A DNA stretch of 64,000 nucleotides from an uncultured Candidatus Saccharibacteria bacterium (GTDB taxonomy: Bacteria > Patescibacteriota > Minisyncoccia > Phycocordibacterales > G965230995): NCBI GenBank assembly GCA_965230995.1, contig OZ246398.1:656213-720212 (forward strand). The letters run 5' to 3'. Positions 4,731 through 5,116 of this stretch are shown piece after piece. Numbering within the stretch: position 1 is the first letter of the stretch; each line of letters opens with the position of its first letter. The notes beneath the pieces are model-generated. The model was given only the letters and a program-made list of their open reading frames with translations, ran no database searches and had not been told where the DNA came from. The translations under genes were made by a program, and so were the position numbers.

Positions 4731-5116
4731 TGGCTCCGCGAGTAGGGCTCGAACCTACGACCAATCGCTTACGTTTTCTCCATTATTACTAATGGTACGG
4801 ACTATATCATTCCCATATCTGATAAATCAGACTTAGGGACAAGGCGCTTCCCATCTTACGACAGTACTCCCATAAAGGGATAGTCTCTACACCTTTCCTT
4901 CGATTACTCTCGGGACTTGGTTCGGGATTGCCCTATTCTTTTAGAATGTGGGGTTTCCCCGAGTTCACCTTGTTTGTCATCCACATTTTCATGTGGAAGC
5001 TGCTGTATGCCGGCATATATTTATTGTCAGCATATTTTCTCTTATCTGCCATAATTAGATTATAGCATCTAAGAAGCGTTTACAGGCGACCGCTCTACCA
5101 GCTGAGCTATCGCGGA
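4731..5116 (-). tRNA. tRNA-Asn(GUU) interrupted by a 310-nt group I intron in the anticodon loop (exons 5116..5082 and 4771..4731; intron 5081..4772); CCA encoded
   Basis: On the minus strand the 5' exon reads TCCGCGA-TA-GCTCAGCTGGTAGAGC-G-GTCGC-CTGT and the 3' exon reads TAA-GCGAT-TGGTC-GTAGGTTCGAGCCCTAC-TCGCGGA-G-CCA. Acceptor, D, anticodon (GTCGC/GCGAT) and T stems all pair. The reconstituted anticodon loop is CUGUUAA (GUU), with discriminator G73 as in Asn. The intron has the 5' splice site after U, a terminal G before the 3' exon, and the group I core elements GTAGAGACTA (P7 5' R-like) and GATATAGTCCG (P7 3' S-like). Confidence 0.7.
4772..5081 (-). ncRNA. group I self-splicing intron (no internal ORF) within tRNA-Asn
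   Basis: Conserved R/S-like core elements (AGAGACUA ... GAUAUAGUCCG), U at the 5' splice site and omega-G at the 3' splice site. No ORF of at least 60 aa inside. Confidence 0.65.

Follow-up and report, generated by a model that had tools for sequence, protein, structure and literature searches.

A 64,000-nucleotide stretch of DNA (contig OZ246398.1 of GenBank assembly GCA_965230995.1, positions 656,213 to 720,212; hereafter the window, whose own coordinates are used throughout) carries on its minus strand a transfer RNA (tRNA) gene that is interrupted in the anticodon loop. This is very probably a functional tRNA-Asn(GUU) gene split between U35 and U36 by a group I ribozyme of subgroup IA, a reading that stands on the anatomy of the sequence, membership in a family, a covarying fold and an exon junction that matches that of intron-less orthologues. 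Introns of this kind were catalogued as “Asn.4Ug” (Williams 2020, bioRxiv 10.1101/2020.01.27.920355, as cited by PMC13011429), and those of Patescibacteria were described, together with in vitro splicing, by Nakagawa et al. (mSystems 2026; PMC13011429). The kind is thus already published and experimentally validated, the window copy adds one member to it, and the interest of the locus as an intron is accordingly modest; the part that may be new is the architecture of the flanks, which combines a GIY-YIG nuclease gene, a palindrome and tRNA fragments.

The two exons of the tRNA-Asn(GUU) gene lie on the minus strand at 5082-5116 (exon 1; 35 nucleotides (nt), tRNA nt 1-35) and 4731-4771 (exon 2; 41 nt, tRNA nt 36-76). 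Exon 1 comprises the 5' strand of the acceptor stem, the D-arm, the 5' strand of the anticodon stem and loop residues C32-U35; on the minus strand it reads TCCGCGA-TA-GCTC-AGCTGGTA-GAGC-G-GTCGC-CUGU, with the 3' end ...CCUGU. Exon 2, which starts with UAAGCG, supplies U36, A37 and A38, the 3' strand of the anticodon stem, a 5-nt variable loop, the T-arm, the 3' strand of the acceptor stem, G73 and an encoded CCA (UAA-GCGAT-TGGTC-GTAGG-TTCGAGC-CCTAC-TCGCGGA-G-CCA). An initial annotation of the window, made from the sequence alone, had proposed a complete cloverleaf here, and each element that it quoted is in place on the minus strand: the acceptor TCCGCGA/TCGCGGA, the D-arm GCTCAGCTGGTAGAGC, the T-arm GTAGGTTCGAGCCCTAC, G73 and the CCA.

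The exons were delimited from the sequence and with ARAGORN, both with introns allowed and on the spliced sequence. In intron mode, the program returns tRNA-Asn(gtt) i(36,310), that is, a 310-nt intron at position 36, which agrees with the 310-nt insert after U35 and the exons 5116-5082 and 4771-4731 that had been annotated; given the 76-mer ligated in silico, which is predicted to contain GCCUGUUAAGCG, it finds a canonical tRNA-Asn cloverleaf. In default mode, ARAGORN called zero tRNA genes in the whole 64-kb window, so that the sole tRNA there becomes visible only when introns are allowed. The spliced product and the intron-less tRNA-Asn of locus L124 (GCA_016188295.1) agree at 72 of 76 positions and have the same anticodon arm, GGTCGCCTGTTAAGCGATT, whereas the best non-Asn tRNA in the same set of loci (Lys and Thr genes) matches at 60 of 76 only. 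The Asn(GUU) identity claimed in the initial annotation is therefore upheld by the intron-mode call and by the match to an intron-less gene. Two further loci, L146 and L236, hold intron-less tRNA-Asn genes with exons identical to those of the intron-containing gene of L105 and, on sequence comparison, form with it a natural presence/absence pair at exactly the 35/36 junction. The sequence of the window locus itself recurs with 100% identity in a second sample (L123). An intrinsic-terminator-like hairpin with a T-run lies 8 nt past the CCA (4702-4723, minus strand), and promoter-like matches around the tRNA gene are no commoner than in shuffled sequence.

The intron occupies 4772-5081 of the minus strand and its 3' end reads ...AAAACG, with the terminal guanosine (omega-G) at 4772. 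In keeping with the splice rules of group I introns invoked in the initial annotation, a U precedes the 5' splice site and a G (4772) precedes the 3' exon. When both boundaries were moved together by shifts of -4 to +4, the 35/36 register was the only one with both U(-1) and a terminal intron G; as every shifted boundary loses one or the other, the claim that only an Asn reading is compatible with omega-G holds. The catalytic-core elements that had been quoted, GTAGAGACTA (4890-4881) and GATATAGTCCG (4808-4798), were found on the minus strand inside the intron. One assertion had to be given up, namely that an insertion at 35/36 is unusual: this is the predominant tRNA-intron site in Patescibacteria, catalogued in 2020 and validated in vitro in 2026, and in 95 complete genomes of the group 15 of the 22 intron-containing tRNAs are tRNA-Asn(GUU) split at 35/36 (PMC13011429). 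Two representatives, the tRNA-Asn of GCA_016700035.1 and the tRNA-Asp of GCA_001029755.1, were shown in vitro to self-splice exactly at 35/36, the control being an omega-G-to-C mutant (PMC13011429).

With the Rfam covariance model Intron_gpI (RF00028), the intron is matched on the minus strand at 5071-4779 with 65.2 bits (gathering threshold 50; E 2.8e-14), end to end over model positions 1-253 of 253, and RF00028 was the only Rfam family above threshold in the 64 kb. Relatives were collected by scanning one-genome-per-species contigs with a degenerate core pattern derived from the window intron and published relatives. At least 120 loci carry the pattern, of which at least 65 are tRNA-Asn genes split after CTGT by an insert that ends in G and is followed by TAA; 41 of the 65 split tRNA-Asn loci, among the matches listed, are Patescibacteria to judge by their record titles. 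The nearest genome relative among the matches listed is that of L105, a Nomurabacteria metagenome-assembled genome, with a core 76% identical (blastn E 1e-36), core identity being counted from the guide sequence on. Against the closest published introns the figure is 57-63%, falling to as little as 46% against others, and the exact exon and intron strings are absent from the supplementary tables of PMC13011429.

The window intron is alignable throughout with 41 members of the class, all ORF-less (lacking an open reading frame), and a hand-drawn group I fold of the window sequence, in which P7 is treated as a pseudoknot, was counted over the resulting 42-sequence alignment. Paired cells make up 84.6%, compared with 66.7% in column shuffles and 33-48% after the partners had been displaced by 1-3 columns; covariation reaches a score of 0.441 against 0.149 in shuffles, with 0 of 500 shuffles reaching the observed value, and compensatory changes occur in 47 of 62 pairs. 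Because it keeps all 65 columns that are invariant over the 42 sequences, the window intron looks fully competent. The internal guide sequence GCAG (5000-5003) pairs with C32-U35 to form P1, with a U35.G pair at the 5' splice site, and the P1 pairs C-G, U-A, G-C and U.G are invariant in 42 of 42 sequences. The exon part of P1 has only four pairs, since tRNA nt 31 is a C that faces an invariant C, and on the intron side no extension of P1 can be drawn by eye; the tRNA-Asp intron that splices in vitro has the same C31xC mismatch beside a 4-bp P1 (PMC13011429, Table S4).

The remaining helices follow in order along the minus strand. The P2 hairpin CCACAU-GAAA-AUGUGG (4981-4996) is paired in 95% of cells and all six of its pairs covary; next come the 5' strand of P3 (4972-4968), the P4-P5 domain (4962-4922) and P6 (4914-4897), with P3 paired in 99.5% and P4 in 99% of cells and compensatory changes in both. 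The 5' strand of P7, GACUA (4885-4881), belongs to an invariant, 100% paired helix and precedes P7.1 (4880-4868; 91% paired, four covarying pairs) and P7.2 (4864-4851; 81% paired, with covariation), after which stand the 3' strand of P3 (4844-4840), P8 (4839-4811; 97% paired), J8/7 with the 3' strand of P7, GAUAUAGUC (4808-4800), and the P9 hairpin (4795-4780; 70% paired). Relative to the Rfam consensus, there is a 32-nt insertion between P7 and the 3' strand of P3. The extra hairpins P7.1 and P7.2 are the mark of subgroup IA in the classification of Michel and Westhof, and by their predicted presence between P7 and the 3' strand of P3 the window intron is assigned to this subgroup. The assignment agrees with the published one: subgroup-specific covariance models put 25 of 28 introns at 35/36 in IA, and the class as a whole is nearly all IA (PMC13011429). 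A first impression of IC3, based on P4-P6 and a GUAGAGACUA motif like those of the Azoarcus and Anabaena introns, was rejected in view of the covarying P7.1/P7.2. The group I class proposed in the initial annotation is thus confirmed by the Rfam match, the covarying P1-P9 fold and the U.G pair that all 42 sequences share at the splice site.

The same annotation had stated that the intron lacks a homing-endonuclease ORF. There is no intact one inside the window intron, but the P1 loop keeps the leader, the start codon, the first nine codons and the last codons of an HNH homing-endonuclease gene. From the 5' splice site to the guide, the window copy has 78 nt, compared with 6-25 nt in most ORF-less relatives, and relatives of 546-564 nt (L101, L062, L019, L049 and others) hold an ORF of ~100 codons in the P1 loop; these intact ORFs give sub-threshold Pfam HNH matches, and the P1-loop ORFs of the class, reported for four of the published introns, are called HNH (PMC13011429). 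The remnant (4995-5067, minus strand), recognized by its matches to the ORFs of L101 and L049, consists of a TGCTATAAT leader, an ATG at 5052-5050, the first nine codons (MADKRKYAD) and then the last ~9 (..IYAGIQQLP). Intron nt 15-55 match the leader and start of the relatives' ORFs (TGCTATAAT at 9/9 and GATAAGAGAAAATATGCTGA at 19/20 with L101), nt 58-87 match the last codons of the ORF running into the guide (24/30 with L049), and the two pieces are out of frame with each other. Since only the start and end pieces match, ~245 nt of the HNH ORF must have been deleted; what is left folds into two hairpins closing the P1 loop. With its HNH gene cut down to a remnant, the window intron should now be immobile, and it documents a clear intermediate stage through which an HNH endonuclease gene carried by an intron decays.

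In the proposed mechanism, the pre-tRNA would be transcribed together with the intron, the guide GCAG would pair with C32-U35 to form P1, and the U35.G wobble would mark the 5' splice site. Exogenous guanosine held in P7 would attack after U35, the terminal G (4772) would then take the same P7 site, and the exons would be joined, so that the loop reads CUGUUAA again and the mature tRNA has its encoded CCA. As for the history of the intron, its P1 loop would once have held an HNH homing-endonuclease gene, which an internal deletion reduced to the 73-nt remnant, and the intron, now immobile, would be passed on vertically.

Outside the intron, a second putative nuclease gene adjoins the tRNA. It is an 83-amino-acid (aa) GIY-YIG ORF (5107-5358, minus strand; Pfam PF01541, E 1.1e-11). 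Nucleotides 1-10 of the tRNA double as its last three codons and TAG stop, a 10-nt overlap in which nt 8-10 of the intact tRNA supply the stop codon; the stop has the same start, tRNA nt 8, in 37 of the 44 GIY-YIG ORFs that were callable in a metagenome set. A PDB sequence search with the protein returned nothing at E<=0.01, and NCBIfam yielded only a sub-threshold match, to an intron-endonuclease GIY motif. The family has 473 detected members, mostly exactly 83 aa long and most ending I-P-x-stop, and Patescibacteria names occur among them in the protein-family listing. One could envisage that this nuclease and the intron form a single mobile unit by “collaborative homing,” the endonuclease cutting intron-less alleles and the intron protecting its own allele. 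The 10-nt abutment of ORF and tRNA would suit such a unit, as would the homologous ORFs in the same place beside intron-containing tRNA-Asn genes in L090, L033, L087 and L050 and the upstream tRNA copies of L087 and L050, which stop exactly at U35. The family is, however, overwhelmingly found next to intron-less tRNA-Asn. At 6 of 6 further loci sampled from the protein side, the gene abuts tRNA-Asn(GUU), and 5 of the 6 are intron-less; the metagenome set contains 47 intron-less and 4 intron-containing cases; the gene also occurs beside tRNA-Lys; and, among the matches listed, it is present at only 4 of 65 intron-containing tRNA-Asn loci. Collaborative homing was consequently rejected as very unlikely: with mostly intron-less partners, tRNA-Lys partners and such rare co-occurrence, the intron and the GIY-YIG gene assort independently, and the family goes with tRNA-Asn genes at large rather than with the intron.

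Slightly less probable still is that the intron is a decaying, non-splicing relic, with this tRNA-Asn a pseudogene and the working copy elsewhere in the genome. Decayed elements do crowd the locus (the endonuclease remnant and the displaced tRNA fragments), P1 is short with a long loop, and the window covers 64 kb only of the genome. A relic would not be expected from the state of the gene, in which every helix and all family-invariant core positions are intact, both exons together make a perfect cloverleaf with CCA, and the region is 100% identical in the second sample. Several points nonetheless weigh against a functional split gene. The four exon-guide pairs of P1 and its unusually long 78-nt loop could slow folding, no convincing P10 pairing can be drawn by eye, and the core is only 57% identical to that of the validated tRNA-Asn intron. 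A second, intron-less tRNA-Asn may lie elsewhere in the genome, given the 64 kb covered, and splicing of the window copy is argued by analogy with the experimentally spliced relatives of PMC13011429. On balance, we retain the functional tRNA-Asn(GUU) gene split at U35/U36.

Bacterial tRNA-Tyr has a long variable arm, which the 5-nt variable loop of the window tRNA does not fit. Least probable of all, to the point of being negligible, is that the gene encodes another tRNA with the intron elsewhere in the loop, the candidates being tRNA-Thr at 33/34 and tRNA-Tyr(GUA) at 36/37 or farther on. Three alternative splicings do pass in ARAGORN as tRNA-Tyr(gta), relatives with introns ending GTG yield a formally valid tRNA-Thr(UGU) by a two-base (-2) shift (PMC13011429, Table 1), and tRNA-Thr at 33/34 is the mistake that ARAGORN and tFind make for many relatives, but the window intron ends ...AAAACG, so that the tRNA-Tyr and -2 tRNA-Thr registers lose the terminal G, and the spliced Asn reading matches intron-less tRNA-Asn far better than it does any Lys or Thr gene (at most 60/76).

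Upstream of the split tRNA-Asn gene and its GIY-YIG neighbour, at 5368-5403 (minus strand), is a displaced copy of the tRNA 5' end, TCCGTGATAGCT, in which a 16-nt palindrome, TCCGCCAGCTGGCGGA, replaces the D-loop and is followed by TGGTAGC. Every GIY-YIG ORF sampled has upstream of it a copy of the first ~13 nt of the tRNA and then a near-invariant 16-nt palindrome, TCCGCCARCTGGCGGA, replacing the D-loop; after the palindrome come GGTAGAGC and a variable stretch reaching tRNA nt 21-35 (mode 27-28), and the same architecture is seen in L124-L129, L033 and L090. When metagenomes were scanned for the palindrome, 120 loci turned up, with 68 instances that have a downstream tRNA. In 56 of the 68, the distance between copy and tRNA is large enough for the ORF (>200 nt; 47 intron-less tRNA-Asn, 5 tRNA-Lys and 4 with introns), and the other 12 are short ORF-less versions beside tRNA-Thr, Asn, Lys and Met; by eye, the ORF-less spacers of L146 and L236 appear to keep the 3' end of the GIY-YIG ORF. 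On the simplest reading, a cassette consisting of the GIY-YIG gene and a replacement 5' segment may have inserted into the 5' half of the tRNA and later decayed by deletion. No description of such a GIY-YIG/palindrome cassette was found in the literature searched. We put forward tentatively, and with somewhat more doubt than confidence, that the locus reveals an undescribed tRNA-gene-invading family, in which a GIY-YIG gene or its remnant stands between a palindrome-bearing 5' copy and an intact tRNA and which recurs at tRNA-Asn, Lys, Thr and Met across Patescibacteria. If so, a single tRNA gene has been struck by three kinds of selfish element, namely the GIY-YIG unit, the intron with its dead endonuclease and the displaced 3' half of a tRNA.

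The palindrome was also encountered in another setting: the metagenome contigs L247 and L190 contain apparently full-length tRNA-Thr-like genes with the same 16 nt inside the D-loop, and ARAGORN calls the L247 gene tRNA-Thr once the palindrome is deleted in silico. At L087 (~4430-4860), the 5' half of tRNA-Asn is partially copied twice in succession; the copies, broken by small hairpins (TCCGCCAAAGGCGGA, CCAGCCTCTGGCTGG), flank the GIY-YIG gene upstream of an intact intron-containing tRNA-Asn.

On the other side of the gene, past the terminator-like hairpin, lies the downstream module (4515-4693, minus strand). In it the tRNA 3' end is first copied in antisense (4693-4681); a long hairpin comes next, then the stem-loop CUCC-UGUAA-GGAG (4549-4537), and finally the last 19 nt of the tRNA are repeated in sense orientation (4533-4515). 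The module folds far better than shuffled sequences (z = -6.3). A sense copy of the gene's own 3' end within 450 nt occurs at 10 of 61 tRNA-Asn loci; the modules of L105 and L022 are homologous to that of the window, similar ones exist in L036, L044 and L076, and the stem-loop with the loop UGUAA is conserved among them. Rfam searches at a permissive threshold over 4300-5600 and at the gathering threshold over seven related loci gave no match to a known RNA family in either module, upstream or downstream. Large serine-recombinase genes (Resolvase/Recombinase/Zn_ribbon_recom) are located on the opposite strand downstream of intron-less tRNA-Asn, directly after it in L124 (2303-3886) and L125 (2277-4013) and beyond a 259-aa ORF in L127 (3046-4252), an arrangement that points to tRNA-Asn as a place where integrative elements attach in Patescibacteria. 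Given these recombinases and the 3'-end copies at tRNA-Asn, scars of integrated elements are a plausible source of the downstream module, which could represent an att-type scar or else a small structured element. Taken with the upstream cassette, the flanks suggest that several selfish elements have tRNA-Asn as a common target in Patescibacteria. Farther off, an island of 54-56% G+C at ~6500-7650 stands out from a window background of 32-35%; a 406-aa ORF in the same place (6425-7645, plus strand) is without a Pfam match and is overlapped by long antisense ORFs. The island is possibly acquired DNA.

The host of the window intron is indirectly indicated to be a member of the Patescibacteria, among other things by the names in the GIY-YIG family and by the background G+C of 32-35%. 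The best named matches of the host AtpD (ATP synthase beta subunit), at 80-82% identity, are to Magasanikbacteria, “Patescibacteria group” and Nomurabacteria. The chief use of the intron finding is a practical one: genomes of this kind seem to be without tRNA-Asn because default tRNA finders miss the gene, which distorts estimates of completeness; this point has already been made, standard tools being known to miss or mislabel tRNA-Asn genes split at 35/36 (PMC13011429).

Compared with the published 35/36 class of Patescibacteria, the window intron shares the host tRNA and the site, U(-1) and omega-G, the GCAGC guide followed by P2, the IA core with P7.1/P7.2, the Patescibacteria host and the failure of standard tRNA finders. 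Some members of the class bear an HNH gene in the P1 loop, whereas in the window this gene is truncated, which places the copy between the ORF-less forms of ~230 nt and the ORF-bearing forms of ~550 nt. The best named protein matches of the host are, moreover, Magasanikbacteria-like, a group that is not among the classes in Table 1 of PMC13011429, so that the class is apparently extended to such a lineage. The cyanobacterial and plastid tRNA-Leu(UAA) intron (Nostoc/Anabaena; the positive control in PMC13011429) is also a group I intron that splices itself out of a bacterial tRNA's anticodon loop and has a U before the 5' splice site, an omega-G and no ORF, but it interrupts the loop at 34/35, is a member of subgroup IC3 and is without P7.1/P7.2; IA and IC tRNA introns separate in the published tree (PMC13011429). 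The tRNA-Arg 36/37 and tRNA-fMet 33/34 introns of Pseudomonadota and Cyanobacteriota (PMC13011429) are likewise group I introns of the anticodon loop, some with homing-endonuclease genes, and differ in tRNA and position, in being mostly IC and in carrying LAGLIDADG or PD-(D/E)XK endonucleases rather than HNH ones. Phage IA introns in protein-coding genes are similar in the core: the motif AAGGTNYAGAGACTA...AGCGCC...GAKATAGTCC is common to the window intron and at least 124 sites on viral contigs, of which 118 of 124 lie outside tRNA genes among the matches listed. The viral-contig scan gave many IA introns, none of them, among the matches listed, in tRNA-Asn and none aligning with the window intron at E<1e-8.

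For the GIY-YIG gene, the closest parallel is SegB of phage T4, a free-standing GIY-YIG homing endonuclease in a tRNA cluster (PMC2330249). In both cases a GIY-YIG gene lies among or against tRNA genes, and the partial tRNA duplications around the window ORF suggest invasion at the DNA level. Unlike SegB, the window ORF encodes a predicted nuclease of 83 aa, consisting of the catalytic domain only with no recognizable DNA-binding domain, and is chromosomal in Patescibacteria; ORFs of this type are, furthermore, always accompanied by a palindrome-bearing copy of the 5' part of the tRNA.

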